Of a stretch of 47,474 nucleotides of DNA, positions 28,847-47,117 are shown piece after piece. Positions within the stretch are counted from its first letter, which is position 1. Each line of letters starts with the position of its first letter. The notes beneath the pieces were generated by a model, which ran no database searches, was not told where the DNA came from, and saw nothing but the letters and a program-made list of their open reading frames with translations. The stretch spans positions 1 through 47,474 of the forward strand of contig JAFIFY010000171.1 in the NCBI GenBank assembly GCA_020831765.1. Reading direction: 5' to 3'. Source of the stretch: Phycisphaeraceae bacterium. GTDB lineage: Bacteria; Planctomycetota; Phycisphaerae; Phycisphaerales; Phycisphaeraceae. The translations under genes and the position numbers were made by a program.

Positions 28847-28883
28847 TTCCGCTGATCCGCAAAGCAGAATGCTGATTTGGTCT

Positions 28884-28920
28884 CAGGCGGATGTCCACAG
28901 GGCGTCCGCCTGTTCTTTTT
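28884..28920 (+). terminator. Rho-independent terminator of the RRM-protein gene
   Basis: CAGGCGGA ... TCCGCCTG, an 8-bp stem, is followed directly by TTCTTTTT, 38 nt after the stop codon. Confidence 0.75.
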
Positions 28921-29108
28921 CCGAGCATCCCGCGGCCAGACCCGAAATCAGGCCGCCTCCAAGCCATTCCAGTCATTGAGCCCGACAGCGTCCCATAACG
29001 CATGGCCAGCCGGCACTTGCTCCCGCCTTGCGGTTGCAGCGCATGCCTGCCGCGCCTTGATGGCCCCTTGTTCCAGCGCTCCGGAAACCCGAGCCGATAA
29101 ACCCGGGG

Positions 29109-31985
29109 ATGGTCCATCCACGAAACAGAACGGAGTGGCGGCCTCGCTGGGTCAGGCCGGCCTTGGCCGCCGCGCTGCTGGCCGGGTGGCTGCTTCTGGC
29201 CCCATCGGCCCCACAGGCCCGGTCCGGCGAGCCGATCACGGTGGACATTACCGCCGTCGGCGTCTCCGCGGCACCCGGTCGCACCGAGCCCGAGGCCCCG
29301 ATCGCCTCGGGACTTCCACCGCGCCTCATTCGGCACTTCGATTTCGAGGAGCCGAACAACGCCGAAATGATGCCGCGCGACTGGTACGCCATCGGCCGGC
29401 CGGAGGATACCGCCGACCCGAGCTTCGCCCGCGTACCGGTCCATCGCCAATTCGTGACACGCACCGGCTATCCCGCCTTCAACACGGTGGGATTCAACAA
29501 GTCGCAGCTTGAACCGGGCGATCACAATCTCCATCTGCGAACCGAAGCCGGAAGCGTCGGCGCTTTTCTGGCCATGGGTTCGGTCATCGCCCTGCCCAAT
29601 ACCGACTACCTGATCACCGCCCGTGTCAAGACAAGCGGATTGAGACATGCCCGCGCGCGGCTCTCGGCCGGCCTCGTGGATCAGGAGGGCAACTGGCTGG
29701 AGGATGCGATCATCCACGGGCCCGGTGTTCGCGGCGATGGACGCGACTGGGAAGATGTCCAGCTTCGCATTCATGGTCGATCCGGCGAAGCGGCGTGGAT
29801 GATTCTCTGGGTCGAACTGCTCCAGCCCCGGCAGCGGCACGACGATCAGCGACGGAACGAACACCAGGTGTTGTTGCAGGACATCGGGGCCGAGGCTTGG
29901 TTTGATGACATCAGCGTCTGGCAGATTCCCCGGATCATTCTGCGCACCCAGAACCCGGTCAACATCATCCGAGCGCCCGACCGGCCGGTGATTCACTGCG
30001 ACATCCGCGATCATGCCGATCAGCGCGTCACCGCCCGCATCCGCATCTACGATGAGTACCTTCATCTGATCGATGAAGACCGCCGCACGGTGGGTCGCGA
30101 TGTATCGCGCATCTGGCGATGGAATCCGAATCTGCCCCGATATGGCTGGTATCTGGCCGATCTTGAGCTTCACGCCGAGGGCCGGCCGGAACATCAGATC
30201 GGCCGATCGCTGCTTGCCCTGCTCTGGCTGCCACAAACCGCCGAGCGACCCGATCTCCACACACCCGCCTTTACCCTTGATCTTTCCGACATCGCCGACG
30301 AACACATCGCCCTCATGCCCGCCCTGCTTGGCCAGACGGCGCTGCGGAATGCCGCGATGAGCATCTGGACCCGGCGCACCGAGCCGGCCGACATCGACAG
30401 GCGCCAGAGCGACCTGGGCGGCGCCCACAACGAGCTTGGGCTGCGCGTCGGGGACATGATCATGAGTTTCTGGCCGCTGCCTGAGTATTTCGAGCGCCGA
30501 ACCACGCCGATCGATTCTTCGCTGGATGCCCTGGCCGGCCATGCCGCCATCTCCGATCCAATGATCCGGCCCGTGCTCCGCTACTGGGGTCAGCGCATCC
30601 GACGCTGGCAGTTGGGCGATGTGCCGGGCAATGCCATTCCGTTCGAGCCCAATCTGCGGGAACGCCTGGAACGATCCCACCGCAATCTCCGCATGCTGGC
30701 GCCCGATGCGGGCATGCTGCTGCCCTGGGGCGTGCAACACCCAGCCCCCCGCCTGACCATCCCCAATCTGCGCCTGGCCCTGGAAGTGCCCGTGACGGTT
30801 CCGCCGGCGACCATCCCCGAACTGGTCGATCGGATTCGTCGCGACAGCGCCGACACCCGCCACGCGCCGAAGATCGAATCGCTGCACCTGTTTTCTCCCT
30901 CGGCGCGGGAGATCAGCCAGCATCGCCGCATCACCGACATGATTCTCCGAATCGTTCACGCCTCGAGCGCCGATGTGCCTGAGCTGGTGCTGCGACAGAT
31001 ATGGACCCCCGCATCGGACCGCGATGCGGGCATGATGCCCGATCCCCTGCTGGGCGTCTTCGCCCAGGCGGCCGGAATGCTGGCCGGACAACGCCTGGTC
31101 GGACACATGCCGGTCATGCCGGGCGTCACCTGTCTGATCATGAATGGCGCGCGCGGACCGATGCTCGTGGTCTGGAACGAGCGATCCGACGTGAAGAACC
31201 CCGTCCTCGACCTGGACTTGGGCGGCGATGCCAAGGCATGGGATGTCTGGGGCAATCCGGTGCCGCTGGGCCGCGAACACGGCCGCGATCAACTTGCCCT
31301 GGACGACCGTCCGGTCTTCGTCACCGGCATCGACCTGAACCTCGCCCTGCTTCGCCGCTCGTTCGTGATGGACAAGCCGAAGATCCGCTCCAACCAGTTG
31401 CCCCAGACCCGCTACCTGACGTTGGGCAATCCGTGGCCGCGCACCATCCATGGAACCGTCCGCATCATCGAGCCTGAAGGCTGGAATATCGTCCCGATGC
31501 GACGATCGGTCGCGATCCCGGCCGGACAGACCATCACTTTTCCTTTGGTGATGCAGATGTTCCCCCGCCTCGAGGCCGCCGGCCGTCACAGACTGACCGT
31601 GCGGCTTCAGACGCCCGGCGAGCCCCAGTTGTCGGTCGACCTGCACGTCGATTTTGAAGTGGGGTTGGATGAGGTGGAACTGGATTCGGCCCTGACCATC
31701 GAACCTTCACGCATCCGAGGGCGGCCGGCCGACGCCGTGGTGGTCCAGCGACTGACCAATCGCACCGACCGGCCGATCTCGATCCGTGCCTTTGCCAACC
31801 TGCGCGGCCATCCCACCCGCGAGACACCCGTCCCCCAACTCATGCCGGGCCAGTCCCTGGTGATCCGCCTTCGATTCCCCGGCGGCGGACCCGACGCGGT
31901 CGAACATTCCGTCCGTACCGGCATCGAAGTCACCCCGGGCAACGACATTCTGATTCACCGCCTTCACGTTGACCTTGACGAATGA
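29109..31985 (+). CDS. Large secreted hypothetical protein (958 aa), unknown function
   Basis: Signal peptide MVHPRNRTEWRPRWVRPALAAALLAGWLLLAPSAPQA. This frame has strongly C/G-biased third codon positions and normal amino-acid composition. The overlapping 969-aa minus-strand ORF is Arg/Gly/His-rich with no signal, so I judge it antisense. Confidence 0.6.
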   Translation: MVHPRNRTEWRPRWVRPALAAALLAGWLLLAPSAPQARSGEPITVDITAVGVSAAPGRTEPEAPIASGLPPRLIRHFDFEEPNNAEMMPRDWYAIGRPEDTADPSFARVPVHRQFVTRTGYPAFNTVGFNKSQLEPGDHNLHLRTEAGSVGAFLAMGSVIALPNTDYLITARVKTSGLRHARARLSAGLVDQEGNWLEDAIIHGPGVRGDGRDWEDVQLRIHGRSGEAAWMILWVELLQPRQRHDDQRRNEHQVLLQDIGAEAWFDDISVWQIPRIILRTQNPVNIIRAPDRPVIHCDIRDHADQRVTARIRIYDEYLHLIDEDRRTVGRDVSRIWRWNPNLPRYGWYLADLELHAEGRPEHQIGRSLLALLWLPQTAERPDLHTPAFTLDLSDIADEHIALMPALLGQTALRNAAMSIWTRRTEPADIDRRQSDLGGAHNELGLRVGDMIMSFWPLPEYFERRTTPIDSSLDALAGHAAISDPMIRPVLRYWGQRIRRWQLGDVPGNAIPFEPNLRERLERSHRNLRMLAPDAGMLLPWGVQHPAPRLTIPNLRLALEVPVTVPPATIPELVDRIRRDSADTRHAPKIESLHLFSPSAREISQHRRITDMILRIVHASSADVPELVLRQIWTPASDRDAGMMPDPLLGVFAQAAGMLAGQRLVGHMPVMPGVTCLIMNGARGPMLVVWNERSDVKNPVLDLDLGGDAKAWDVWGNPVPLGREHGRDQLALDDRPVFVTGIDLNLALLRRSFVMDKPKIRSNQLPQTRYLTLGNPWPRTIHGTVRIIEPEGWNIVPMRRSVAIPAGQTITFPLVMQMFPRLEAAGRHRLTVRLQTPGEPQLSVDLHVDFEVGLDEVELDSALTIEPSRIRGRPADAVVVQRLTNRTDRPISIRAFANLRGHPTRETPVPQLMPGQSLVIRLRFPGGGPDAVEHSVRTGIEVTPGNDILIHRLHVDLDE

Positions 31986-32043
31986 TGGGATCGATGGCCG
32001 CGCCCAAGTTCGGCACCTGAATCATTCGTCAATCGGGCGGCCT

Positions 32044-32709
32044 TCACGGACCTTCGGCCAGCGCTGCTTCAATGGCCGTGATGACCTCGGGGCTGGTCGG
32101 GCTCTGCCGGGGCCGGAAACGCTGCACGATTCGACCATCCCGACCGATGAGAAACTTCTCGAAATTCCAGGTGATTTCGCCCGCGTGTTCGGGATTGGTC
32201 TGTTCCGACGTCAAGTGGGCGTAAAGCGGCGCGATGTCCTCGCCCTTCACGGAAATCTTGCTGAACATATCGAACCCGACCCCATAGTTGACCTGACAGA
32301 ACTCGGCGATCTGTTCGTTCGTGCCCGGCTCCTGGTTGCCGAAATTGTTGGCGGGAAATCCAAGGATGGATAGCCCGCGGTCGCGATACCGCTCGTGAAG
32401 CTCCTGAAGCTGGGCATACTGCGGCGTCAGTCCACAGCGGCTGGCCGTGTTGACGATGAGGATGACATCGCCCTGATACCGCGATGCCAGATGCACGGGA
32501 TCACCATCGATCCGCTTCAAGGTGAAATCAAGGGCCGATGGATGCGTCGCGGGGTTGGGTTCGGTCTTCACGGCTTTCGACTCCCTGGCGGGCCTGTCCA
32601 TCTGACACGCGGCCAGCGACATCACCGGCAACAGCATCCCAAGGCACATAAGGCTGAACTTGCTCACGATGGTCTCTCCGAACTGAGGATCAGCGAACGT
32701 TTCCATCAT
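32044..32709 (-). CDS. Glutathione peroxidase family protein (thiol peroxidase), lipoprotein-anchored
   Basis: The GPx signature region VILIVNTASRCGLTPQYAQLQELHERYRDRGLSILGFPANNFGNQEPG has Cys in place of Sec, plus the WNFEKFLI motif. The N-terminal signal has an AAC lipobox. Confidence 0.85.
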   Translation of the reverse strand: MMETFADPQFGETIVSKFSLMCLGMLLPVMSLAACQMDRPARESKAVKTEPNPATHPSALDFTLKRIDGDPVHLASRYQGDVILIVNTASRCGLTPQYAQLQELHERYRDRGLSILGFPANNFGNQEPGTNEQIAEFCQVNYGVGFDMFSKISVKGEDIAPLYAHLTSEQTNPEHAGEITWNFEKFLIGRDGRIVQRFRPRQSPTSPEVITAIEAALAEGP

Positions 32710-32763
32710 AGGCCGGCCGCGGGGCGAAAAATCGACCGGGCCTTGAATCGTGCGCCGGCCCGC

Positions 32764-34632
32764 TCAGGGCGAAAGCGTCCGAAGTTCCATGCGCCAGGTG
32801 TCCCGCGTCTGCTCATCGACATCGGGATCGGGCAGCAGCGATCGCCTCGTGCAGTTAAGCAGCGCTTGCAGTTCCTGATATCGCCTGGCCTGCCCAATGT
32901 CCGCGGGCAACTGGTCGCCGATCACCTCGTGGACATCGCCCGGCTTCAACTCCCGGTCGAGCAGTTCCCGCCGGGCCAGCAGTTGGCTGCGCAAAGCGCT
33001 GAACGCGGCGGCGGAGTAGCCTTCGGTCAGGGAAAGCAGTGCTTCCCACTCATCAGCCTCGGGCTGGCCCTCCAGACCTCGAAGCGCCCACCGCAGAAAC
33101 GCGGCATGATCCTTGCTCCGTGGCTCTGGATCGAGCACGGGGATGATCAGATCGCCGACGCGGCCCGGACGACGAAGGTCTGGCGAAAGCAACTCGATCC
33201 GGGCGGTCATCAGCAACCAGACCACTCGGCCGCGCAGCTTCGGATCGCTCATCATCTGCTGGAGTTTGCCGGTCAGGCGCCGTTCGGTGGGGTGGGCCTC
33301 GGCGCCGACGGACCCGAACTGCGTGTCAGCCTCATCCACAATGATGATGACCTTGCCCAGGCTCTCGAGCAGGCTGCGCAGCTTCTCGAACAGAACATCG
33401 GTCTGCCCGAAGTATTGACTGCGGATGTTCTTGAGAACCAGAACGGGCAGGCCCAGTGAACCGGCGACCGCTTCAAAGATGAACGTCTTGCCTGACCCGA
33501 TGGGACCGGCGATCGCCGCGCCCGGCAGTGCAGCGGGGCCGGTGGCGCGGATTCGTGGGATCATCTCATCGGCCAGGAACTGCTTGAGGCGGGAAAAGCC
33601 CACCACATCCTCCAGCGAATGCGCGGGCTTGGAAAACTCCACGACTCCTTCGCCCAGCGTGCCCTCGATGTACGATTCGACCCGCGAGATGATGTCGGAG
33701 ACCGACACGGGCTGGTTGACATAAGCCGAGCGCAGCAGCAATTGCCGCATGGCATGGAGCGAAAGCCCGGCGGTCAAGGCCGCGAACTCCGGCAGCGGCA
33801 TTTGCAGCGGCGCTTCGGGCGAATGCGTTCGATTGAACCATTGCGTGAAATGAACGCGCTCCTCCTGGTTCGGTGGATCGATGCCGATCATGACCAGTTG
33901 CGGCAAGCTGGTGACGCGCGTGCTGACCGCCGAAGCCGCCTCCGCGATCATCACGACGCTGTCCGGGCCATTGTTGAAAGCCGGATCGCTGAGCCAGTCC
34001 TGCATGATGCTGATGCGATGACGGTCGGCCGGCGTCATGCGTGACAGATCGGCATCGCCGCCCGAGCCCGGCAGCAGAAAATCCGCCGCCTCGACAAGAA
34101 TCAGCAATCGAAAACGGCTCTGCGAGCGTGAACAGATCGTAAGCTGTCGAAAGAACTCCAAGGCGACCGTCGGCTGCGCCGCGGCCTGTTCGATCATCTC
34201 GTTGAATCGGTTCTCGATTTCCTCCCGGCGATTATGCAGGGATGGATCGGCCAGGCCGCGCAGGATCAGTTCATCCCGGCTTCCGCCCAGCTTCCACTGG
34301 ACCCATGCGTCCCGCAGACGCCGGCGGTCGTCATCACTCGTGCAACGGATCGGCCCGTTCAACTCCGCGATCAGGACGATCAGGCCATCGACTCGGACGC
34401 GCTGACAGAGCCACGGCACCAACGGCAGGTATCGATCGGAAACGTTGCTGTGAAACAGCCCGTGTACATCACCGTGAAGGAGAATCGCCCTGCCCTGGCC
34501 GCTGTTGATGGTACGGGCCAGTTCGGTGTAGAAAGGATAGCTCGGCGAGTTGGAATCCTGCGAGGGAAGCGGAACGGAATCCATGGCCATGATCGGATAC
34601 CCGGGCATCGGCGTTCGACCGCGATTCACCAT
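32764..34632 (-). CDS. Classical-clade AAA ATPase (Vps4/katanin/FtsH-like ATPase domain) with a ~330-aa N-terminal domain of unknown function
   Basis: Walker A GPIGSGKT; Walker B IIIVDEAD. Second region of homology WLLMTARIELLSPDLRRPGRVGDLIIPV with arginine fingers. It aligns motif-for-motif with the Vps4 ATPase cassette. It lies 36 nt downstream of the PspA-like gene. Confidence 0.8.
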   Translation of the reverse strand: MVNRGRTPMPGYPIMAMDSVPLPSQDSNSPSYPFYTELARTINSGQGRAILLHGDVHGLFHSNVSDRYLPLVPWLCQRVRVDGLIVLIAELNGPIRCTSDDDRRRLRDAWVQWKLGGSRDELILRGLADPSLHNRREEIENRFNEMIEQAAAQPTVALEFFRQLTICSRSQSRFRLLILVEAADFLLPGSGGDADLSRMTPADRHRISIMQDWLSDPAFNNGPDSVVMIAEAASAVSTRVTSLPQLVMIGIDPPNQEERVHFTQWFNRTHSPEAPLQMPLPEFAALTAGLSLHAMRQLLLRSAYVNQPVSVSDIISRVESYIEGTLGEGVVEFSKPAHSLEDVVGFSRLKQFLADEMIPRIRATGPAALPGAAIAGPIGSGKTFIFEAVAGSLGLPVLVLKNIRSQYFGQTDVLFEKLRSLLESLGKVIIIVDEADTQFGSVGAEAHPTERRLTGKLQQMMSDPKLRGRVVWLLMTARIELLSPDLRRPGRVGDLIIPVLDPEPRSKDHAAFLRWALRGLEGQPEADEWEALLSLTEGYSAAAFSALRSQLLARRELLDRELKPGDVHEVIGDQLPADIGQARRYQELQALLNCTRRSLLPDPDVDEQTRDTWRMELRTLSP

Positions 34633-34668
34633 GCCCGGCCGGGACGCATCGGATGCCTGCCGAGGAAA

Positions 34669-35499
34669 TTACTCGGGAAGTCGCGGTTCGGAGGTCTTGT
34701 CCGTATCGGTGGGCCGCTCGGACTTGTCGGCCGATTCGGCCAGCCCGATGAGCTTGTCGAACTCGTCGCTGGTCTTGTGCTGCCTGGCATACTCCAGGAA
34801 CTGGGCCTCCTGAACCTTGGTGTCGGTACCGGCCAGTTCGCGGCTGATGCGCGCCTTGGCTTTCATTTCATCGCGTAGCTGGCGCATCTCGGCCAGGTCG
34901 CGCGAGGTTCGATCCTGGCTGATGCCCACCAGCATGTCGTTAAGCTCCTGCTCCTCCCGCGCGGTGATGATCTCGGCGACCGCCACGGCCTGTTCTTCCT
35001 TGACGCGGTCGATCTCGCGAAGCATCTGCTGGAGTTGAATCTTGTGCCCCTGGATGGTCTGATCCATGTCCGTCAGTTCCTTCTCCAGCTCGGCGATGCG
35101 CGGCGTCTTCTCCTCGATGCGACTCGTGAAGTCGTTGAAGGCCAGCATGCACTTCTGGTAATCCTCGCCGGCCTTGATCGCCGCAAGGTCCATCCCCTGG
35201 GCTCGCAGCTTCTCAACGGTGGTTCTCGCTTTGGCCGCCGCGCCTTCCTTGAGTTGTTCCATGCGGTTGATCTCGTCGGACAAGGCGCGGATGCGGTTCA
35301 TCTTCTCATCGTGCTGCACGATCAGCCTCGCGATCGCATCCTTGAACTGCTGGATCGATTTTTTCTTTTCCTCGATGATCTGGTCATACGTCGCATTGAC
35401 GACGTAAGGGCTTGTGCTGATCGCTCGCCGCGCCGCATCGATCCGACCGGTGACCAGGTAACCCAGGGCACGAAAGTAGCGTCCAACGGCCTTAAGCAT
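34669..35499 (-). CDS. PspA/Vipp1 (IM30) family coiled-coil protein, ESCRT-III superfamily
   Basis: The N-terminus LGYLVTGRIDAARRAISTSPYVVNATYDQIIEEKKKSIQQFKDAIARLI aligns with Vipp1 LGRVVRANLNDLVSKAEDPEKVLEQAVIDMQEDLVQLRQAVARTI. The rest is heptad-rich coiled coil with a C-terminal acidic/Ser-Thr tail. The likely start is MLKAVGRYF, the ATG at 35497-35499. Confidence 0.6.
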   Translation of the reverse strand: MLKAVGRYFRALGYLVTGRIDAARRAISTSPYVVNATYDQIIEEKKKSIQQFKDAIARLIVQHDEKMNRIRALSDEINRMEQLKEGAAAKARTTVEKLRAQGMDLAAIKAGEDYQKCMLAFNDFTSRIEEKTPRIAELEKELTDMDQTIQGHKIQLQQMLREIDRVKEEQAVAVAEIITAREEQELNDMLVGISQDRTSRDLAEMRQLRDEMKAKARISRELAGTDTKVQEAQFLEYARQHKTSDEFDKLIGLAESADKSERPTDTDKTSEPRLPE

Positions 35500-35738
35500 G
35501 ACAGGCTCCTTCGCTCGGGATGGCGATTCCGGGTTCACATGGCTCGCCGCGCGGCCCTTGGCGGCGCGCATCCAGACGATGCCCAGCGTCGCAAGCATCC
35601 GTGCCGACGAAGGATACCGCCAAAGCGCGGCCGGATCAATGCAAACAATCCGGCCGTACGGCCGCCACGGGATGCCGCATCAGCCCGTCACCGCGCCACC
35701 CGACGGCCGACCCGACGTTCGGACGGCGGCGGCGAAGC

Positions 35739-38700
35739 CTATTCCTCGCTTTCTTCCAGGCGGCGAATGATCCCCTGATACTTGTCCGCCAACGATTCGA
35801 GTGAATCAATCACCTGCTTGATTCGGCCCTCCTGGTCGGCGGTGATGCGGCTCAAGGGCTCCAGCCAGGCCTTCATCAGGTCGAACTGCTGCCGGATGAT
35901 GACCAGGAACGCTTCGGGAACCCGGTTGGTGATTCGAATCTGGTAAGGGCTGGGCTGACCGGTGACCTCTTCAGGCGTGGGTGGATCGGCGGCGGCCGGT
36001 GTGGCGGGCGGCGGCTCGGCGGGTTCGGGACGTTCGGCCCGTTCCTCGATCCAGCGCTGTGCGGCCGCGGCCAGGGCATCGAGCCGACTGGAAAGCTGAC
36101 TGGCCGCCTCGATCGCCTGATCATCGAACTTGGTCACCAAGGGCTTGCCGTTCTCGCCCTTGGCTCGCTCGATGGCGCTGCCGATCTGGCCCAGGCCCTC
36201 GTTGAACCGGCTCAATTGCGCCACCACCGCCGCGGTCTGATCGCCGCCCATCGCGGCCACCTCGTTCTGACGGACGAACGCCCGGCAAATCTCATCCCAC
36301 CGTTCCTTCTCCGTTTCACTCATCCAGCCCATCATCTCCTTGAACTTCAGCAGGTTGGCCTCCGCCCCGGTGGTCAGCATCTGGGCATCCTGCTCATAGG
36401 TCGAGAGCACAAGCGTCTTGAGCTCATCATCATTCATCACCGGCAGGATCCGCTCGGCGATGCGGTTCATGTTGCGGTAAGACCCTTGAAGCAGGAAGAC
36501 CGGCTCGCGACGATACCGATCATCCATGCCGGCCGAGCGGATGTACTGCTGATTGACGCGGAGAATGATGTCACGGACCTGAAGCAGCTTCTTCATCACA
36601 TTGACCATTTCCTCGATCTGGTCCGTGGTGAAGTTGGCCTCGAAATCTATGCCCTCGCGGGTGCCGGTTTCGGCGATGCGGATGATGTTGTAAACATCGC
36701 CCTGTGACCGCGTGGCCAGGTCGCGCAGCGTCGGGTTGCTGGTCAGGGCGTTTTCGATGTAACTGGTCCTGAACGCCTCGCCGTGATCCCCGATGATGTC
36801 GCCGAGGTTATAAGTGTCGGCACGGTTGGCCAGCATGTCGGGCACGCGGAACTTCTCACCGCTTTCGGTGTACGGATTACCCGCCATGACCACGGCGACC
36901 TTCCGGCCCCGCAGGTCGTAGGTTCTGGCCCGGCCCTTGTAGACGCCTTCGATCTTCCGCTGGGCATCGCACAGGGAGATGAACTTCTGCAGGAATTCCG
37001 GATGGGTGTGCTGAATGTCATCGACATAGATCATCACATTGTCGCCCATCTCGAAGGCGAGATTGAGCTTGATGATTTCCTCCCGGGCACCGGCGTTGGG
37101 CGCTTCCTCCGGATCAAGGCTCGTCACATCCCGGCCCAGCGCCGGGCCGTTGATCTTCATGAACACGATCCCCAGCCGACTGGCCAGGTATTCCATCAGG
37201 GTCGTCTTTCCATAGCCCGGCGGACTGATGACCATCAGCAGGCCGTTGCGGTCCGTTCGGGCATCGGCCCCGGCCGTGCCGATCTGCTTGGCCATGTTGG
37301 CCCCGATCAGCGGCAGGAAGACGCGGTCGATCAGGCGATTCCGCACGAACGTGGTCAACACGCGGGGCGTGAACTCATCGACCCGCATCTGGTCGCGTGT
37401 CCGCTCGACGATGCGGCGTTTGGCGGCGGTGAATCGCTCGAAACGCGGAACATCCTCCCGCGCGAACCGGCCGAGCCGATCGACGAACTCGAGGTAATCC
37501 AGCTCCATTCGCCCCTGCTTGATGCGGCCATGCCCGCCGCGCAGCCCTTCGACGGTCCGCCGCGCCTGAACGGGCAGCAATCGTCCATGGTCCCCCGTCC
37601 GGTCATACAACTTGAACGCCGCCTCATCCAGGCACAGACCGGCCCGGGCCTGATCCCGGTCCGAATCACGCACGAACGCCGCCAGCCAGTCACGGGCGAG
37701 CAGGAATCGCGCCATCGGCCCCTGGTCGGCCGCGTCCAGCGACTGATTGAAGCGAAGTTGCAGGTGATTGGCCTTGAGATGATCCTCAAAGGCGTTGATC
37801 AGTTCATCGGCTTCCGGGCTGGTGATGAATCCCGGTTCCTCACCGGTCAGCTCGAGGAAGAGATACTCAGCGGCCTGTTGGGCATGATCGGCGGAGAAGA
37901 CAGAATTCTGCTCGGCGAATTCGCCGATCAGCCGCGCGACCTTGTGGATGTATTGTTCCTGCCTGCGCGACTCGGGAAAAGCCCGGACCACCTCGGCATA
38001 CCCCTCGAGTTGCGAGGCGATAAAGCGTTTGGCCGGTGAGTCCTGGGCCGCGCGCCAGAACATTCCGGCCAGGGCCCGGGCCGCGCTGGAATACCGCAGA
38101 AGACCGATGGACTCGGATAGATCGACCAATTCCCGTACGATCAGGGCGGCATCGGCATCATGCACGCCTTTGGTATAGCCTTCGCCGTAGCGCGGCCCCA
38201 TGAAGCGTCGGACATGTTCCAGCAACCGATCGCCGCCGGGGTCCAGAAGCTCTCGACGTTCCATCTCCGGCATGGCAAGGAGGTCAGGCAGCATGACGAA
38301 CGCCAGGTACTCAGCTCGATAGACCGCCTCGTTCTCGCTGATCAGTTCCTGATTCCAGGCTTGACGTGCTTCATTGAGGTCAACATCATCCACCGGCTCG
38401 AAGAACCGGGTTCCGTTGATGTGAAGCTGCATCTTTCCATCGCGCTGCACCATGGTCAGTTCGATGGGCTGGGTGTTGACCGAAAAGACATGCCGCCCGA
38501 AACGGATGCTGTTGGGCCCTTCGGCCTGCAAGTCCAGCCGATCCTTCAGCCGCCGGACCGCATCCTCCCTCAGGCTGCGGAGGCGGCCCTGAATGTCATC
38601 GGCCCGCACCGTGTCTTCAAGGCCGATCAGTTCCTTGACGATGTCGCGAAGCTTGTCGATCATCAGGTCGCCGGCGAAATAACCATTGATCGCCGCGATC

Positions 38701-41072
38701 GAATCCATCGCCTCGACCCGTACCTTGATGCCGGAGAGAATGCGGTCGGCGGCCTGGCCCAGGGCGATCGCCCGCCGATTGCGCCGCTCGACCAGTTGCA
38801 GCTTGCGCTGCTCAAATGCGCTGACCACATCATCGCGGGTCTGGGCCAGGCGGACCACGAAGTCATCAAACTCCGCGAAGCGTCCCTCCAATTCCTCGAT
38901 TTGGACCAGCATCCGGGTCAGAAACGTATCGACCTTCAGCGGCTCATCGCACAGGTCCAGGTAGTTGGCCGTGCTCTGGGAGAGCAATCGAAGCTGGCTG
39001 TTGAACTCGGCCTCGCCTTCGACGCGCCCCAATTCCCCGGCGCGGTTGCGAAGCGCCTGACGCGAAGCGTTCAGATTGCCGAAGATCGCCGAGATGGCAT
39101 CAATGATCGTCGTCCGCTGCGTGCTGTCTTCGATCTTGAGGTTGCCCACGATCTCGATGAGCATTTCAAGCTCGGAGGCGGCGGCTTCAATCTCAGTGCC
39201 CAGCTCACGGGCATCCACGGCGGTCCGCACCGCTTCAATCCGGGCCGGAAATTCCCCGACACGGTCGCGATAGGGCTGAAGCGAATCCTCCTTGAGCAGA
39301 AAGGCCACGCAACGTTGACTGAGGGTCTCGGTCTGTTCGGTGACATCGGCTTCCATCGCCTCGACCCGCCGCGCATCGGCGTACCGGACTTCCTTGAGCC
39401 CGATGATCCGTCCCCGCGCTTCGCGAAGCTCGGCCAGCGCTGTGACGAACGCATCAATATGGTTGTACATCCGCGCGGCGTTCCGCGCGATCATCGCGCG
39501 CGTCCGGTCCTCTTCCTCGCCGATCGCCTGGTCGGCGGCGCGGCGGAGGCGGACGACCTTCTCATACTCGGCCACGGCCGACTGCCCCGTCTCACGGATG
39601 CGCCCGATCACCTGGTCGAGATTGAAGCATTCATCTTCCCGGAGCCAGTGGTAGCCCTCGAGCAGGTCCGAGGATGTCTTGACGATGTCCAGGTAGAGAT
39701 CGCTGTATAGCGATTCCCGCTCGATGAGCTGAAGCAGTTGAGCGCACTCGGCCATGCCCCGCACGATGTCACGATTGCCGATCTTGTAAAGTCGCGAGCT
39801 GGCGTCACCCTCGACCCGCTGATTGGGGCCGATGAACGGGGTCTGCCATATCTGGAGGGCATGGTGGCGCTGCGGCTCTTCGTGCGACTTGAAGTAAACC
39901 AGCTTGCCATCCTCGAACAGGCTGAATCCCGAGCAGATGATCGGCGTGTCGATGCGCTGTTCGATCAGGTTGTAGGGCAGAAGCGCGTAAGTGCCCTGGT
40001 CACGATGGTAGAAGACGTAGAGGAAATCCTCACCGTTGGGGCTGGAGATGCGGCGCTCGTGGATCATCCCATCGGGCACATTCGAGAACGTCTGATGCCG
40101 CCCCGAGGCCAGGTAGAAGCCCTTGCTGAAGATCAGGCCGTGATCATCCGGAAGCATCAGGCAGGAACCGGCCAGGGCATCTTGGCGGACCACCTCGTGA
40201 AGCTTTTCATTGAAAATGAAATAGCGGAACTGATTTTCCTTGAACGGCTTGATGCGAAGCAGGATCAGGTGGCCGTGAACGGCGTAGCTGATGTCGGCAT
40301 CGTCCGGGCCCTGGTCAGGATCATCGACCGGCTCGGCGTAGATGCCCCGGCCGTGCTCGGTGCTGTCCTCGATCTTGATCGTCAGCTCGCCGGAAATGGT
40401 CTCGACGAAGACCCGATCCTCGATGGAATAGTGGGGAAACTTGCCCGGGCGCAGCATGTCGCGCGTCACACGCTTCCAGTCCAGGTCGTGCGCCGCCGGA
40501 TAGCGGATTTCGTGATCCGACCGGTTGTCGACATAGACCAGTTGGTCACCTTCGATCGCCCATTTGAAGGCCTTGAAGTCTTCGCGATCGCGGCCCACCT
40601 GGAACTTCATGTACAGATAGGGAGCATTGAGGAAGAACTTGCTGAACGTCGCGTTGCGATAGAAGCGATAGAGATCTTTGAATTCCTTGACGAACCGGTC
40701 CGTGGCGATCGGCTTGATCGGTTCTTCGTGAAACTGCTCGCCATCAAAGCGGCTGCATGTGAACACATCGCCGACGTCGATCTCCTGCTTGAGACCGAAA
40801 CGAACGTTGTAGCCGAAGAGAAAGCGCTCACCGAACGCGGCCATATCGCGCGGCACGCAGTTGTGCGGCGTGGTGATGCGATCGGTGCCGATCAGCCGGG
40901 TCTCGACGCCACCGAAAACCTTCTTCCGCGCTTCATTGAGCTTGTCCAGGCGCGCGCGCAGATCGCGGCCGGCCTGAACCAGCCTCTCCCGGAGCACCTG
41001 GTAGGCGCCCTGATCCATTTCCCGCTCTTCGGGTTCCGCCGCGGCCTCGGGCGCTGGAGTCTGCTCGGCCAT
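35739..41072 (-). CDS. Giant (~1780 aa) protein with a single MoxR/dynein-type AAA+ (AAA_5-like) ATPase module, long coiled-coil/helical N-terminal region and Pro/Glu-rich C-terminal tail
   Basis: Walker A LMVISPPGYGKTTL; Walker B MIYVDDIQ. Sensor-1-like VVMAGNPYTE and Arg-finger-like VPDMLANRAD lie about 1250-1450 aa from the N-terminus. I recognise no other domain. The start is probably MAEQTPAPE (ATG at 41070-41072); the track ORF starts at 41105. Confidence 0.65.
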   Translation of the reverse strand: MAEQTPAPEAAAEPEEREMDQGAYQVLRERLVQAGRDLRARLDKLNEARKKVFGGVETRLIGTDRITTPHNCVPRDMAAFGERFLFGYNVRFGLKQEIDVGDVFTCSRFDGEQFHEEPIKPIATDRFVKEFKDLYRFYRNATFSKFFLNAPYLYMKFQVGRDREDFKAFKWAIEGDQLVYVDNRSDHEIRYPAAHDLDWKRVTRDMLRPGKFPHYSIEDRVFVETISGELTIKIEDSTEHGRGIYAEPVDDPDQGPDDADISYAVHGHLILLRIKPFKENQFRYFIFNEKLHEVVRQDALAGSCLMLPDDHGLIFSKGFYLASGRHQTFSNVPDGMIHERRISSPNGEDFLYVFYHRDQGTYALLPYNLIEQRIDTPIICSGFSLFEDGKLVYFKSHEEPQRHHALQIWQTPFIGPNQRVEGDASSRLYKIGNRDIVRGMAECAQLLQLIERESLYSDLYLDIVKTSSDLLEGYHWLREDECFNLDQVIGRIRETGQSAVAEYEKVVRLRRAADQAIGEEEDRTRAMIARNAARMYNHIDAFVTALAELREARGRIIGLKEVRYADARRVEAMEADVTEQTETLSQRCVAFLLKEDSLQPYRDRVGEFPARIEAVRTAVDARELGTEIEAAASELEMLIEIVGNLKIEDSTQRTTIIDAISAIFGNLNASRQALRNRAGELGRVEGEAEFNSQLRLLSQSTANYLDLCDEPLKVDTFLTRMLVQIEELEGRFAEFDDFVVRLAQTRDDVVSAFEQRKLQLVERRNRRAIALGQAADRILSGIKVRVEAMDSIAAINGYFAGDLMIDKLRDIVKELIGLEDTVRADDIQGRLRSLREDAVRRLKDRLDLQAEGPNSIRFGRHVFSVNTQPIELTMVQRDGKMQLHINGTRFFEPVDDVDLNEARQAWNQELISENEAVYRAEYLAFVMLPDLLAMPEMERRELLDPGGDRLLEHVRRFMGPRYGEGYTKGVHDADAALIVRELVDLSESIGLLRYSSAARALAGMFWRAAQDSPAKRFIASQLEGYAEVVRAFPESRRQEQYIHKVARLIGEFAEQNSVFSADHAQQAAEYLFLELTGEEPGFITSPEADELINAFEDHLKANHLQLRFNQSLDAADQGPMARFLLARDWLAAFVRDSDRDQARAGLCLDEAAFKLYDRTGDHGRLLPVQARRTVEGLRGGHGRIKQGRMELDYLEFVDRLGRFAREDVPRFERFTAAKRRIVERTRDQMRVDEFTPRVLTTFVRNRLIDRVFLPLIGANMAKQIGTAGADARTDRNGLLMVISPPGYGKTTLMEYLASRLGIVFMKINGPALGRDVTSLDPEEAPNAGAREEIIKLNLAFEMGDNVMIYVDDIQHTHPEFLQKFISLCDAQRKIEGVYKGRARTYDLRGRKVAVVMAGNPYTESGEKFRVPDMLANRADTYNLGDIIGDHGEAFRTSYIENALTSNPTLRDLATRSQGDVYNIIRIAETGTREGIDFEANFTTDQIEEMVNVMKKLLQVRDIILRVNQQYIRSAGMDDRYRREPVFLLQGSYRNMNRIAERILPVMNDDELKTLVLSTYEQDAQMLTTGAEANLLKFKEMMGWMSETEKERWDEICRAFVRQNEVAAMGGDQTAAVVAQLSRFNEGLGQIGSAIERAKGENGKPLVTKFDDQAIEAASQLSSRLDALAAAAQRWIEERAERPEPAEPPPATPAAADPPTPEEVTGQPSPYQIRITNRVPEAFLVIIRQQFDLMKAWLEPLSRITADQEGRIKQVIDSLESLADKYQGIIRRLEESEE

Positions 41073-41135
41073 TTCGCATCTCATCCGGGAAGTACAGAAA
41101 ACCAAACACCCATGCGGATGCTCACGCGCCGGGCG

Positions 41136-43220
41136 TTACGACTTGCCCTTGCCCTTGGGCGCATCGGCCGGGGGTGTCGATGGCTCGACCGGAACCGCCA
41201 CACTGGCCACGGGCTGGGTGCCCAGGCCGCTGCTTTCGGCGTAACCGGCCATCTTGCGGAGTTGATCCAGCACATGCCCATCCTTGGTCTGGCTGATCAT
41301 GCGCATCAACAACGCCGAGATCGACAGGTTCCTCACATCCTCGGTTGATATGCCGAACTGACTCATGAAATGCCGCAACCGCTGCCCGAAGTCACCGCCA
41401 TCGCCATTGAAGAAGGTGTCCCGGACAAGCTCGAGGTTTCGCGAATTGCTCATCATCCGGTCGACCTGCTTGCCGGATGTGATGGAATTGACGATGCGAT
41501 TGAAGAACTCGCCATCGCCGCCGACGATATCGATCTTGCTGTTTCGCAGGGCCTCGCCCAGGACGCGGGCCTGTTCGGCCGCCACATCGCGATGGACGTT
41601 GATGGCGGCGATATCGACTTCCCGATCCTTGGACAGGCGGAGCTTGAATTCCTCGTGTTCCCGGCCGACGCCGTCGAGCAGCTTCATGGCCTCGGCCTTG
41701 GCCGCGACCCCGTCGGCCTCGGCCGAATACTTCTCGCGCATCGACTTGGCTTCGGCTTCGCCCTTGGCCGCGATCACATCGGCCTGGGACATGCCGTAAT
41801 TCCGCTCGGCGCCGGCCTTGGCGTCGAGCACTTCGGCCTCGGCCAGGCCCTCGGCGGCCGATTCGGCGCGCGTCGCCTCGGCCAGCTTCATTTTGCCCTG
41901 GGCTTGCTTTTCGGCGGCCTGCCGGCTCGCCTCGGCCGCGATGAGCACCTCATCGGCCTTGAACTTGGCCGCTTCCTTGATCGCCTCGGCCCGCTTGACC
42001 TCCTTGACCTTGTCCTGTTCGGCATCGGCCGATGCCGCGGTGACCTTGACCGTCTTGGCCCGTTCGGCAGTCATCACCTCTTCGGTGTCCTTGATGCGCT
42101 GCTGCTCCTCGACGACCGCTCGCTCGACCACGACGCGCTCGCGAATGACATCCTGAATCTTCTTGCGCTCAACTTCCAGCGCCTTTTCCTTCTCGATCCG
42201 GGCCAGTTCCACCACACGCTCACGCTCGGTGGCCTCCAACTGGCTGTCGCGCTCGACGCGCTGCAGCTCCACCCCATCGGTCCGCTCCTTGGAACGCTGG
42301 GCCACCAGGATCTGCCGCTCCTTGTTCTGTTCGGAGATGCCCAGTTCCTCTTCGGTGCGAATGCGGGCGGTCTGGGCCTTGAGCCGCTCCTCTTCGCGGA
42401 CCTTGTCGGCTTCGGCCTGCTCGCGGGCCTGGATCGATTCGATCTCCCGCTTCTGCTTGGCTTCGGCATCGGACTGCTGGCGCTCGAGTTCGAGGATCGT
42501 CTCGCGTGCCTCGACGTCCTGCTTCTTGATGATCTTTTCCTTCTCGCGGTTGATGTCATTCGCCCGGACCGCTTCCCTGGCCGTCAGCTCGCTGATCTTC
42601 TTGATGCCCTCGGCGTCGAGAATGTTGTTCGGGTCCAGCTTATCGACCGAGGTCTGCTCGAGATAGTCGATGGCCGCGTCATCCAGCACATAGCCGTTCA
42701 GGTCTGTGCCGATGTGACTGACGATCTCATCCTTGAAGCGATCGCGTTCGGTGTACAGCTCGGTGAAATCGAACTTCTTGCCCACCGTCTTGAGAGCCTC
42801 GGAGAACTTGGCATCAAAGAGCTCGACCAGTTGCTCCTTGTCGCTTGCGCGGCGAACACCGATGGAGTCGGCCACCTGGAGCAGGTCCCGCTCGGCGTTG
42901 TTCACCCGCACGAAGAACGCCACTTTGATGTCGGCCCGGACGTTATCCTTGCAGATCAGGCCTTCCGAGCCGTGTCGATAGATTTCGATCCGCCGGACCG
43001 AAACGTCCATGACATCGGCGCGATGCAGGATGGGGAAGACCAGCATGCCGTTGAACGACACTTTGGCGCCGCCGTAGCCGCGCCGAATCAGGCCCGTGCC
43101 CGGTTCCACCTTTCGATAGCACTTGACCACCGTCAGCAGCGCTCCGAGGACGATGATCGCCAGGAAAATGACCGCCAGTACGATCAGCGTTTCCGTCACG
43201 GCAAGTAGGGTCGGCATCAT
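41136..43220 (-). CDS. Flotillin family protein (SPFH/band-7 domain, long EA-rich coiled-coil flotillin domain), YqiK/FloT-like
   Basis: N-terminal TM helix; SPFH core (GLICKDNVRADIKVAFFVRV...); about 250 aa of Glu/Ala/Arg/Lys-rich coiled coil (AEAKQKREIESIQAREQAEADKVREEERLKAQ...). It sits immediately downstream of the NfeD/YqiJ-like gene, as in yqiJK and nfeD-floT operons. Confidence 0.85.
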   Translation of the reverse strand: MMPTLLAVTETLIVLAVIFLAIIVLGALLTVVKCYRKVEPGTGLIRRGYGGAKVSFNGMLVFPILHRADVMDVSVRRIEIYRHGSEGLICKDNVRADIKVAFFVRVNNAERDLLQVADSIGVRRASDKEQLVELFDAKFSEALKTVGKKFDFTELYTERDRFKDEIVSHIGTDLNGYVLDDAAIDYLEQTSVDKLDPNNILDAEGIKKISELTAREAVRANDINREKEKIIKKQDVEARETILELERQQSDAEAKQKREIESIQAREQAEADKVREEERLKAQTARIRTEEELGISEQNKERQILVAQRSKERTDGVELQRVERDSQLEATERERVVELARIEKEKALEVERKKIQDVIRERVVVERAVVEEQQRIKDTEEVMTAERAKTVKVTAASADAEQDKVKEVKRAEAIKEAAKFKADEVLIAAEASRQAAEKQAQGKMKLAEATRAESAAEGLAEAEVLDAKAGAERNYGMSQADVIAAKGEAEAKSMREKYSAEADGVAAKAEAMKLLDGVGREHEEFKLRLSKDREVDIAAINVHRDVAAEQARVLGEALRNSKIDIVGGDGEFFNRIVNSITSGKQVDRMMSNSRNLELVRDTFFNGDGGDFGQRLRHFMSQFGISTEDVRNLSISALLMRMISQTKDGHVLDQLRKMAGYAESSGLGTQPVASVAVPVEPSTPPADAPKGKGKS

Positions 43221-43237
43221 TTACGGTACTCCCAGGG

Positions 43238-43948
43238 TTAGAATCGACGAACAAGAAATACATGGGTCCGGGGCTCCTGCTTGACCAGGACGACCTCATC
43301 GCCCCGCTTGAGCGCTTCGCCCGGCTCGGTCAGACGCGCATTGAATCTCAGCGGAGCCCCGGAGGTTTCCACTTCCACCTGCCCGAACCGCTCGTCGAGC
43401 GTTCCGGAGACCACCCGGCCGCGACGGCCCACCAGAACCAGGTTCCGCTCGGCCATCTCCTCTTCCCGCAGTTTGCGGAAAACCTTCACGAGCGGCTGGG
43501 TCATCACCTTGGTGATCAGGGCGGCGCCGATGCCGAAGGGAACCAGCATCAGCGCCTGGAACAGCAGGCTCCATTCGCCCACCCAGGTATGGCTGGCCAC
43601 GCCCACCACCCAGAGCACCAGGACGAAGATCGAGAGCAGGAACATCAGGGGCACTTCGCCGACATTGAAAAACCGAAGGGCGTTGAGCATGATCGCCCCG
43701 CCGGAAAGCCCCGAGTCTCCCGCCGCGCCCCCGTGGTGGCCATCGAGAATGCCATCCCCGCCGATGTGCCCCACATCCCCTCCATCGAAATCCAGGTCCG
43801 CATCCACGTGGCCGTCCAGGTCCACATCCAGCGAATCCATCGTCAGCGCCCCGAAGATCACCAGCAACCAATAGAAAAGCAGCAACCCCAGCAGGGTCGT
43901 CAGCACCAGATTGACAGGCGAAAGAATGGCCTCGATCAATTCTGACAC
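43238..43948 (-). CDS. NfeD/YqiJ-like membrane protein (flotillin partner) with Asp/His/Gly-rich loop and C-terminal OB-fold
   Basis: TM helix, then acidic loop DSLDVDLDGHVDADLDFDGGDVGHIGGDGILDGHHGG, then TM helices. The C-terminal ERFGQVEVETSGAPLRFNARLTEPGEALKRGDEVVLV aligns with E. coli YqiJ [27 protein letters not shown]. Gene order YqiJ-like then flotillin. Confidence 0.7.
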   Translation of the reverse strand: MSELIEAILSPVNLVLTTLLGLLLFYWLLVIFGALTMDSLDVDLDGHVDADLDFDGGDVGHIGGDGILDGHHGGAAGDSGLSGGAIMLNALRFFNVGEVPLMFLLSIFVLVLWVVGVASHTWVGEWSLLFQALMLVPFGIGAALITKVMTQPLVKVFRKLREEEMAERNLVLVGRRGRVVSGTLDERFGQVEVETSGAPLRFNARLTEPGEALKRGDEVVLVKQEPRTHVFLVRRF

Positions 43949-44146
43949 AACGTACTCCCGGGTCCGGGGTCACCGGCTGAGAATCGCCTCGACCCCGATC
44001 CATGCGGACAGGAATAACCCTGGCCCGACGCCATCCAAACCCACGTCAAGGCCATCGATAGCATACCGGATTTCAAGATGGGTAGCGGGACGCCGGGACA
44101 TGGCCGCCGGCGATGAACAGGGGACGGTGGCTGGTCCGCGGAACTT

Positions 44147-45763
44147 TCAGGGCCTCGCCGCGGTCCGGGGCATGAGCGGTGTGGGTTTGTCGGAATATTC
44201 AAGCGGGATGATCAGGCTGAAGGTCGCCCCCTCCCCGAGATTGGAATCCAGCAGAATCTCGCCCTGTAACAGCTTCGCCAGATCGCGACTTATCGTCAGA
44301 CCCAGCCCGGTGCCGCCATGTTCGCGCGTGACCGTGTGGTCCAGTTGCTTGAACTTGTCAAAGATTCGCTGGTGGTTTTCGGGTGCGATGCCCGGCCCGG
44401 TGTCCCGGACGCTGAGGCGGAGCCTGGCCCGTGACGCATCCACACCCACGGGCCAGAGCATCGCCGAGAGCGTGACCGTTCCACCTTCCGGTGTGAACTT
44501 GATCGCGTTGCTCAGGAAGTTGAAGAGTATCTGTTGAAGCCGGCCGGCGTCGGTGACCACCAGCGGCAGGTTGCGCTGGATATCCAGCTCCAATTCCACG
44601 CCGCGCTTCTCCGCCTGGGGTCGCATCAGGTTGATCAGGCCTTCGCAGGTGTCGGCGATCGAAGTCGGCGCGGGTCGGATGTCCATTCGCCCGGCCTCGA
44701 TCTTGGCCAGGTCCAGCAGATCCTTGATCAACTCCAGCAAGTGCCTGCCCGAAGCCACGATGTTGTTCAGGTATCGCCGGCGCTTGGCCGCTTCCGGGTC
44801 ATCCTGATCCGATGAATTCTGCTCGAGCACCTCGGCGAAACCGATGATCGCGTTCAGCGGCGTGCGCAACTCATGCGAGACGTTGGCCAGGAACTCGCCC
44901 TTGACCTTGTTGGCTTCATCCAGCGCCACGTTGATCTCGGCCAGGGCGCCAAGCCTCAAATCCAGCGACTTGTTGGCCGAGCGCAATTCCTCCTGATTCT
45001 TGCGCAGGTTCTCAAGCATGGTGTTGAACACATCGGAGAGTTGCTCGAACTCATCACCGGTGTCAATATCGGATCGGATGTTCAAATCGCCTTCGCCGAC
45101 TTTCTCGGCCGTATCCCGCAGCAGCCGCACCGGTGAGAGGATCAGCCGGGTGGTGATGAACCAGAACGCGGCGATGGCCAGCAGGCCGGCCAGAAGTCCG
45201 CCGGCGATGATGTAGATGCGGTTGATCAGAAGCTGGCGGTCGGCGGTGTCGGTGCGAAGCTGAACCAGCAGGACGAAGCTGAGCGGATCGGCCAGGTGGG
45301 TGACACTCAGGTCAGGGCCGAAACGATCGAACGGCCCGCCGATCAGGCCCGTTTCGCTCTTGCGGACCGCGCGGGCGTAACGGAACACCCGGGCCCCCTG
45401 ATGGCGGGCGTCGGCGAAGGCCTCGGTCGCATCCGGATGGCGTTCAAACCGCTCGATGGCCTGAGCGATGAACGAATCGGTCCTGGTGTAATCAACGAAC
45501 TCGTCCGACCGGATCAGCCGAACCAGCATCTCATCACGCTCGGGACTGTCGAACGGGTCGAACAGGCTCAGCCGCCCCACTTCCAACTGCCCGCTCAGCA
45601 GCGACTGGGCCACGCTTCGGGCACTCTCGGCCAACTGAGCCTCGACCAGTTGACTCATCCGAACCCAGGCCACGGCCAGCGCGGCGAGAATGATCAGCAA
45701 TACCGCCGCGCCAAAGAGAATCTGGCATTTGTTGGCAAGGCTGATGCGAATCGGTCGCCGCAT
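44147..45763 (-). CDS. Sensor histidine kinase (2 TM + periplasmic sensor, HAMP, HisKA, HATPase_c); no cognate response regulator adjacent
   Basis: H-box EFLANVSHELRTPLNAIIGF; N, G1, F and G2 boxes present (FLSNAIKFT, VRDTGPGI, GGTGLGLTIS). A HAMP linker follows the second TM. Confidence 0.85.
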   Translation of the reverse strand: MRRPIRISLANKCQILFGAAVLLIILAALAVAWVRMSQLVEAQLAESARSVAQSLLSGQLEVGRLSLFDPFDSPERDEMLVRLIRSDEFVDYTRTDSFIAQAIERFERHPDATEAFADARHQGARVFRYARAVRKSETGLIGGPFDRFGPDLSVTHLADPLSFVLLVQLRTDTADRQLLINRIYIIAGGLLAGLLAIAAFWFITTRLILSPVRLLRDTAEKVGEGDLNIRSDIDTGDEFEQLSDVFNTMLENLRKNQEELRSANKSLDLRLGALAEINVALDEANKVKGEFLANVSHELRTPLNAIIGFAEVLEQNSSDQDDPEAAKRRRYLNNIVASGRHLLELIKDLLDLAKIEAGRMDIRPAPTSIADTCEGLINLMRPQAEKRGVELELDIQRNLPLVVTDAGRLQQILFNFLSNAIKFTPEGGTVTLSAMLWPVGVDASRARLRLSVRDTGPGIAPENHQRIFDKFKQLDHTVTREHGGTGLGLTISRDLAKLLQGEILLDSNLGEGATFSLIIPLEYSDKPTPLMPRTAARP

Positions 45764-45885
45764 ATCGCCATTGTCAGCTATTCAGACGGAAATGTCGATT
45801 TCGCATCCCGCGAGCCCGGCAACAGACGACAATCGACCCCCGAGAACCCACGCATGGAGAGCGGTCACGACGCCGAGCGCACCGA

Positions 45886-46914: not shown

Positions 46915-47117
46915 GGTCAACCTTTCCGGGTGACGGAGCACCCATCTGAAAGCATCCGACATTGTTCGGCAGGACCGGTGTCAATCGATCACGAGATATC
47001 TCTGTCGGCAACGCCAGACGGAATCGTCAATGGCGCAATCGGTGCGACCCACAACATAAGGTGACACCCCCTCCGGAATGCGCATCCTGGCGAACGGTCG
47101 CCATGTGAACGCAACGA

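Follow-up and report, generated by a model that had tools for sequence, protein, structure and literature searches.

A five-gene cluster in Phycisphaerae-related bacteria joins a flotillin module to a PspA-like/AAA+ module

Both halves of the locus analyzed here, a gene cluster on a 47,474-bp contig from a Phycisphaeraceae metagenome-assembled genome (hereafter, "the window" is this whole stretch), are already known from comparative genomics. In the passages of their paper that bear on this locus, Ravi et al. (2024, mSystems; PMC11237479) describe an operon that combines genes for a YqiJ/YuaF protein, a Band-7-flotillin and a beta-propeller-coiled-coil-AAA+ protein, with or without PspA, and report that the abbreviated, PspA-free versions are widespread. 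The same source describes a second system in which PspA forms a dyad with a two-domain AAA+ protein, "inactive classical AAA + classical AAA", whose N-terminal copy is the inactive one, sometimes within ABC/PBPb-OmpA operons (Table S3). The main-text and supplement passages of that paper that matched contain no merger of these systems like the one in the window, and Planctomycetes go unmentioned in its main text. Further links come from experimental and comparative work: YqiJ and YuaF are NfeD-type partners of flotillins (PMC2636767), the SPFH protein YdjI is necessary for localizing PspA to the membrane in B. subtilis (Scholz et al. 2021, PMC8581546), and some archaeal Vps4 loci contain SPFH and ABC-substrate-binding genes (PMC10936438). 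According to a 2025 review, a Vps4-like ATPase appears to be absent in bacteria (PMC7619361).

In the window, an open reading frame (ORF) scan and a check of coordinates place seven co-directional minus-strand ORFs at positions 32044-45763. The five in the middle encode, in order, a YqiJ/YuaF-family (NfeD-like) membrane protein of 236 amino acids (aa) at 43238-43948; a 694-aa YqiK-type flotillin with a hydrophobic N-terminus, an SPFH region and a long Glu/Ala-rich coiled coil at 41136-43220; a giant ATPase of 1777 aa at 35739-41072; a PspA-like protein of 276 aa, probably a divergent PspA/IM30 (ESCRT-III superfamily) member, at 34669-35499; and a tandem AAA+ ATPase of 608 aa at 32764-34590. 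We refer to the first three as the trio, or module 1, and to the last two as the pair, or module 2. Three starts were shifted, to 41072 (giant), 35499 (PspA-like) and 34590 (tandem AAA), as indicated by aligned homologues, by the lengths of the deposited proteins and by a ribosome-binding site, AGGAG, that is conserved; the corresponding ORFs span 35739-41105 (1788 aa), 34669-35598 and 32764-34632 (622 aa). From the kinase gene at one end of the seven to the peroxidase gene at the other, the gaps are now 198, 17, 63, 239, 78 and ~54 nt, the flotillin-giant and PspA-like-AAA gaps having been 30 and 36 nt before revision.

A reading of this stretch made from its sequence alone (the sequence-only reading) had reported co-directional minus-strand genes with gaps of 17-240 nt, with which our coordinates agree, and had interpreted them as two normally separate membrane modules combined in an undescribed architecture. 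The gene cluster is confirmed as real, and the interpretation is partly supported: two modules are indeed combined, in a five-gene order that recurs in relatives, whereas both modules, as well as a flotillin-PspA link, are already present in the cited passages of PMC11237479, and it is the merged five-gene arrangement that is new relative to them. We interpret the locus as a lineage-specific fusion of two membrane-maintenance modules that would act together by the mechanism proposed below, a reading to which we assign a probability of roughly 55%. It builds on what we observe: the homologies and folds of the proteins, how widely module 1 is conserved, the fact that module 2 exists separately and the repeated juxtaposition of the two.

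Conservation of the two modules and of their junction

Using the window proteins as queries, we compared 80 species-representative genome loci centered on the giant gene and 9 others, limiting trio counts to the 71 loci with > 3 kb of sequence upstream of that gene. Of these 71, 68 carry a flotillin gene upstream of the giant one and 63 carry both flotillin and YqiJ there, with YqiJ directly upstream of flotillin and with strand and gene order shared. The trio is found in about ten phyla overall, including Planctomycetota, Verrucomicrobiota, Kiritimatiellota, Lentisphaerota, Bacteroidota and Desulfobacterota, with further occurrences in Omnitrophota, Clostridia, Fibrobacterota, Sumerlaeota and a Gammaproteobacterium. 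It is a conserved unit, near-universal among giant loci, and in the window its three genes share one strand and keep the gene order of the YqiJ-flotillin-DUF3686 operon outlined in the cited passages of Ravi et al. Within this otherwise fixed order, the flotillin-giant junction resembles a hot spot for insertions: the two genes are 0.5-2.4 kb apart in many genomes of Bacteroidota and Verrucomicrobiota, and the space is filled by unrelated cargo (e.g., L022:8715-9383, L029:5662-6186, L034:9389-9946 and L047:2478-3347; here and below, L numbers denote comparison loci). The cargo includes genes for an esterase, for an AbiEii toxin and for a DUF559 endonuclease, along with IS200-type transposase remnants and unassigned ORFs; a hidden PspA gene was also considered for these gaps, and none was present.

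The pair is a separate module. Across 80 metagenomic loci centered on the tandem AAA gene and examined over a 10-kb neighborhood, a PspA-like gene co-occurs in ~35, either adjacent or ~3 kb upstream; where the spacing is ~3 kb, the genes form an operon ordered VWA-OmpA-x-PspA-x-permease-ABC ATPase-AAA (L168).

The junction of the two modules is real and clade-conserved. At least five further genomes from a Phycisphaerae-related clade (L170/171, L074, L165, L172 and L173) show the order YqiJ-flotillin-giant-PspA-AAA, and because the flanks of these loci are unrelated, the attachment of the PspA-AAA pair to the trio is not an accident of the window genome. The survey took in the giant proteins most closely related to that of the window, at 54-81% identity; those of the five-gene loci are 55-81% identical to the window protein, L170 being the 81% relative. 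The five genes are therefore not merely coincidental neighbors in one genome, and the locus is a lineage-restricted five-gene fusion of two widespread modules.

PspA has also joined the trio elsewhere. In 16 Bacteroidota loci, which correspond to the CesT/Tir-PspA operon of Ravi et al., a canonical PspA_IM30 protein (2.5e-40) goes with the trio. In 15 of the 16 its gene is the one directly upstream of YqiJ, in the same orientation; in L017 it is on the opposite strand, downstream. In 14 of these loci there are also genes for a CesT_Tir_1 chaperone and for a divergent helix-turn-helix (HTH) regulator. As different PspA clades joined the flotillin trio in different phyla, the link arose at least twice. 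In a Sumerlaeota genome, PspA-like and AAA genes lie beside the trio in a divergent arrangement, the PspA-like protein being only 44% identical.

Identity of the five proteins

The YqiJ-like protein aligns collinearly with E. coli YqiJ over its full length (BLASTP, 2e-8), with a score below the cut-off of Pfam YqiJ_N (20.3 bits vs 23, E 6.7e-4). For the flotillin-like protein, Pfam, including Band_7, gives no match even at E 10, and phmmer together with a profile search of the PDB yields coiled-coil noise and a short QmcA match only. With nothing from these searches, its identity was settled by profile comparison, in which the family profile built from 20 homologues aligns to E. coli YqiK with an hhalign probability of 100% (E 2.7e-39, 390 columns); in addition, NCBIfam FloT matches at 3.4e-4 and Band_7 is found in 2 of the 20 homologues (best 8.3e-9). 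The homology covers both the SPFH region and the coiled coil, and the YqiJ homologue lies 17 nt upstream as the expected NfeD/YqiJ/YuaF-type operon partner. The NfeD-flotillin pair named by the sequence-only reading is thus borne out by the matches to YqiJ and YqiK.

We accept that the PspA-like protein belongs, as a divergent member, to the PspA/ESCRT-III superfamily, with the caveat that long helices readily give matches to coiled coils. PspA_IM30 (PF04012) is its top-ranked Pfam family, at 15.8 bits against a gathering cut-off of 33.9 (E 0.011), and is likewise the top family in 13 of 27 homologues (E < 0.1, best 8.2e-6), while a profile search of the PDB returns collinear matches to Vipp1/PspA at ~5e-3. 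The AlphaFold2 model has a predicted local distance difference test (pLDDT) score of 78, and Foldseek ranks 1-9 against the PDB are all Vipp1/PspA (E 1.6e-3 to 1.9e-2, probability 0.99-1.0), in alignments of ~250 columns, in agreement with an ESCRT-III/PspA helical hairpin fold. The sequence-only reading had proposed a PspA/IM30 protein; sensitive methods uphold the family and the fold, the length is 276 aa and not 309, and the Pfam score is below the cut-off.

Two segments of this family stand out. At the N-terminus is a conserved amphipathic segment, MFxAIGRYFRAxGYL, preceded by a start and ribosome-binding site that are themselves conserved among homologues. The C-terminus (34669-34750 in the window) consists of EFDxLIGL, a variable acidic linker and a terminal (L/I)PE, and this strikingly conserved tail resembles a docking motif for an AAA partner. 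One 5.5-Mb Planctomycetota genome encodes two PspA-like paralogues (L164:15624-16445 and L168:4240-9929). The copy beside the giant gene ends in KLRE, where the tail is otherwise invariantly LPE, and the second sits with a tandem AAA gene in a VWA-OmpA-PspA-permease-ABC operon.

The C-terminal half of the tandem AAA protein matches Pfam AAA (PF00004) at 8.8e-17, and its best PDB matches are the D2 domains of VAT/p97 (5.9e-23). In the homologue alignment the motifs of this active domain are invariant: Walker A GPIGxGKT (GPIGSGKT in the window), Walker B VDEAD and a [YW][FY]G pore loop. The N-terminal half, whose family counts 285 cluster representatives at 50% identity, aligns with the C-terminal half (hhalign 92.8%, E 4e-7) such that IEAAD falls on Walker B and Walker A is absent. 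Because this half aligns as an AAA domain lacking Walker A, the protein is a tandem with a dead first copy and not Vps4. It belongs to the classical, Cdc48/VAT-like clade, so this part of the earlier "Vps4-like" label holds; the Vps4 part does not, given the tandem architecture, a score of 23.9 bits against the NCBIfam CdvC cut-off of 650 and no MIT domain by Pfam. "Vps4-like" is therefore a functional analogy and not a statement of membership.

The giant protein begins with DUF3686 (1.6e-177, residues 48-486 of the 1788-aa ORF) and DUF7902 (1e-25, residues 607-689), followed by a helical middle region, a MoxR-type AAA+ module (~1280-1480), a Pro/Ala-rich linker and a conserved C-terminal segment. 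For the DUF3686 region we adopt the beta-propeller assignment given in the cited part of Ravi et al. (PMC11237479). A sequence profile could not place the ATPase module in a clade, its matches being confined to the Walker A stretch in p97 and RuvB, so that structure comparison was needed; the module's best structural matches are MoxR AAA+ proteins of the NorQ/CbbQ type, whose fold it shares. The ~1780-aa protein with a MoxR/AAA_5-type module described by the sequence-only reading is thereby borne out, at 1777 aa, although that module is not its sole recognizable part, as had been claimed, since DUF3686 and DUF7902 are recognized as well. The C-terminal segment (35739-35900 in the window), which follows the Pro/Ala/Glu-rich low-complexity linker, contains the invariant residues Q1740, F1741, L1743, M1744, W1747 and P1750 and may serve for docking. 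A VWA partner is the usual companion of MoxR ATPases, and a gene in one comparison locus could for this reason bear on the giant ATPase: L165, alone among the five-gene loci, has a 1002-aa FHA + VWA_3 protein encoded right after its tandem AAA gene (L165:18674-21682).

Databases label the giant protein "DNA repair ATPase", and in NCBI and Pfam DUF3686 goes by the name "ATPase involved in DNA repair". One might accordingly regard the giant protein as a DNA-repair ATPase, or the whole locus as an anti-phage or conflict system, the more so as AbiEii, DUF559 and IS200 genes lie between flotillin and giant genes in some genomes. We hold either view to be very improbable. PADLOC returned only weak generic P-loop or coiled-coil matches, Pfam detected neither a DNA-binding nor a nuclease domain in the giant protein, and the partners that it keeps in 68 of 71 loci are membrane proteins. 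A full-text literature search for "DUF3686" retrieved no paper mentioning it, so the DNA-repair name appears to lack published support and is probably wrong.

Proposed mechanism and competing explanations

We propose that flotillin and YqiJ would assemble into an SPFH scaffold at the cytoplasmic membrane, and that the giant protein would dock on this scaffold or on its clients by way of its helical parts and its N-terminal propeller, while the MoxR-type ring remodels scaffold or clients by analogy with the action of NorQ and CbbQ on their targets. At or near the flotillin platform, the PspA-like protein could bind stressed membrane via its N-terminal amphipathic helix and polymerize there. The tandem AAA+ ATPase might then grip the conserved PspA C-terminal tail and thread it through its aromatic pore loop, and such threading would disassemble and recycle the PspA polymer, the role that Vps4 plays for ESCRT-III.

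Several points weigh against this reading. Every step of the mechanism is one that we infer. The PspA assignment leans on weak sequence scores and a mostly helical model, and coiled coils match easily; the N-terminal half of the tandem AAA protein matched no solved structure in the PDB by sequence, the protein has no MIT domain, and Pfam finds no VWA domain in any of the seven locus proteins, leaving the MoxR module without an adjacent VWA partner. As for the junction, the trio occurs within 10 kb of the tandem AAA gene in none of the 80 AAA-centered metagenomic loci, the pair lies downstream of the giant gene in only 1 of the 80 species-representative giant-centered loci (L074), and in two close relatives, L166 (at 66% identity) and L169, the trio is not adjacent to the pair. 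A shared contig was rejected as a proxy for adjacency, as the L169 pair is on the same 58-kb contig as the giant gene but > 10 kb from it. Finally, a 239-nt spacer parts the modules in the window. It holds a GC hairpin with a weak T tail (35664-35651, minus strand), picked up by a terminator scan, and a promoter-like TTGATC-17 nt-TATCCT element (35639-35611, minus strand) within a block conserved with the 81%-identity relative. Given the hairpin and the conserved promoter-like block, the pair probably has its own promoter in the window genome. The same spacer is only 44-57 nt in L165 and L172, short enough to make co-transcription likely there; in L172 the giant-to-PspA gap is 44 nt and the PspA-to-AAA gap 3 nt.

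The observations on the junction would also be expected if the modules were functionally independent, having become neighbors once in the ancestor of the clade and been kept together by descent, with the pair normally serving an ABC-transporter/OmpA envelope operon. The usual context of the pair, VWA-OmpA-x-PspA-x-permease-ABC-AAA, agrees with this (L168; PMC11237479, Table S3), and those PspA-like proteins that are linked to a trio resemble one another most closely (62-87% identity), consistent with a single acquisition. We consider inheritance without joint function unlikely, yet weighty enough to keep in play because the modules are usually apart and their adjacency has been lost in close relatives. 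It sits poorly with the Sumerlaeota genome, where the modules are side by side in a divergent arrangement with a PspA identity of only 44%, and with L164, where a PspA-like gene stays beside the giant gene although the tandem AAA gene is elsewhere, with the second PspA-like copy. Bacteroidota, moreover, join another PspA to the same trio, and a link between SPFH proteins and PspA has been shown experimentally in B. subtilis (PMC8581546). A working fusion of the two modules therefore remains the reading that we prefer.

The sequence-only reading, taken to its full extent, yields a kinase-regulated, seven-gene machine for envelope-stress and lipid-peroxide repair that includes a lipoprotein glutathione peroxidase and the histidine kinase upstream. 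The two additional genes are correctly identified, and both lie on the minus strand: a histidine kinase with HAMP, HisKA and HATPase_c domains by Pfam (44147-45763) and a glutathione peroxidase (32044-32709; Pfam GSHPx, 6.8e-38) with a lipobox-like LAAC in its N-terminus. All seven genes are co-directional, 198 nt separate the kinase gene and ~54 nt the peroxidase gene from the five, and the scan detected no terminator-like site between the tandem AAA and peroxidase genes. Their membership, however, finds no conserved linkage in ~90 comparison loci: none has a peroxidase homologue beside the cluster or a kinase homologue adjacent to it, the five-gene loci L170, L074, L165, L172 and L173 included. 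In the 81%-identity relative, an unrelated gene follows the AAA gene; weak kinase matches are limited to two, one > 3 kb upstream of YqiJ (L014) and one downstream of the giant gene (L066). The flanks of the cluster differ in every genome compared, and no response regulator is encoded near the kinase. The peroxidase and the kinase are bystanders, and the neighborhood data largely refute the seven-gene model, which we regard as having only a slim chance of being right.

Beyond the seven ORFs, positions 45886-46962, upstream of the kinase gene, encode a DUF1559 protein with a prepilin-type N-terminal methylation motif, of a kind typical of Planctomycetota. Just past the peroxidase gene, at 28737-31985, two ORFs of ~960 aa overlap on opposite strands, and neither is matched by Pfam. 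An Rfam scan of 31500-46500 found no RNA family.

A bolder version of the preferred reading is that PspA and the tandem AAA+ ATPase form a true bacterial counterpart of ESCRT-III/Vps4, an ATP-driven polymer recycler that in this lineage would be physically coupled to a flotillin cage serviced by the giant ATPase. We put this forward tentatively and think it doubtful; if true, it would amount to a two-motor membrane-remodeling supercomplex in a phylum noted for its elaborate endomembranes and would contradict the view that bacteria lack a Vps4-like ESCRT-III remodeler (PMC7619361). The locus and its relatives tie PspA polymer disassembly, the role of flotillin and the widespread DUF3686 ATPase into one conserved cluster, and they offer concrete pairings, the PspA tail with the tandem AAA protein and flotillin with the giant ATPase. 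Their value is as a compact test case for bacterial ESCRT-III/AAA recycling tied to flotillin. Comparative genomics has already put the idea forward, so that what is gained is a better test of it and not a new principle.

Comparison with known systems

The closest described system is the CesT/Tir-PspA flotillin operon of Ravi et al. (e.g., Dokdonia ANH61663.1), which, as presented in the cited passages, shares with the window a YqiJ-flotillin-giant core in the same order and a PspA gene within the cluster. In the window, PspA is downstream and not upstream, belongs to a divergent clade and is followed by a tandem AAA+ ATPase; the CesT/Tir chaperone and the divergent HTH regulator are missing, and the locus does not conform to the YjfJ-type dyad. 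The PspA-AAA dyad from the same source (Clostridium AEY64321.1, Handelsmanbacteria OGG56892.1) has the same pairing, in tandem form with a dead N-terminal copy. According to the parts cited, this dyad is normally alone or in an ABC-transporter/PBPb-OmpA operon, as in L168, whereas in the window it is appended to the flotillin operon.

Among experimentally familiar operons, E. coli yqiJK and B. subtilis yuaFG (NfeD2-FloT) have homologous NfeD-like and flotillin genes in the same order (PMC2636767) but no giant ATPase, PspA or tandem AAA gene, all of which the window has. The B. subtilis pspA-ydjGHI operon likewise encodes an SPFH protein together with PspA, though YdjI is a short SPFH protein and not a YqiK-type flotillin, and the operon has no ATPases. 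NorQ/NorD and CbbQ/CbbO supply the MoxR AAA+ proteins that best match the giant's module in structure; NorQ and CbbQ are stand-alone ATPases of ~260 aa with a VWA partner, whereas the window module is embedded in a 1777-aa protein in a VWA-free locus. Relative to archaeal and eukaryotic ESCRT-III/Vps4, the ATPase of the window is a Cdc48/VAT-like tandem without MIT and its partner is PspA-like, not Snf7; what the locus has in common with those systems is an ESCRT-III-superfamily gene, as far as the PspA assignment holds, beside a classical-clade AAA+ gene with an aromatic pore loop.

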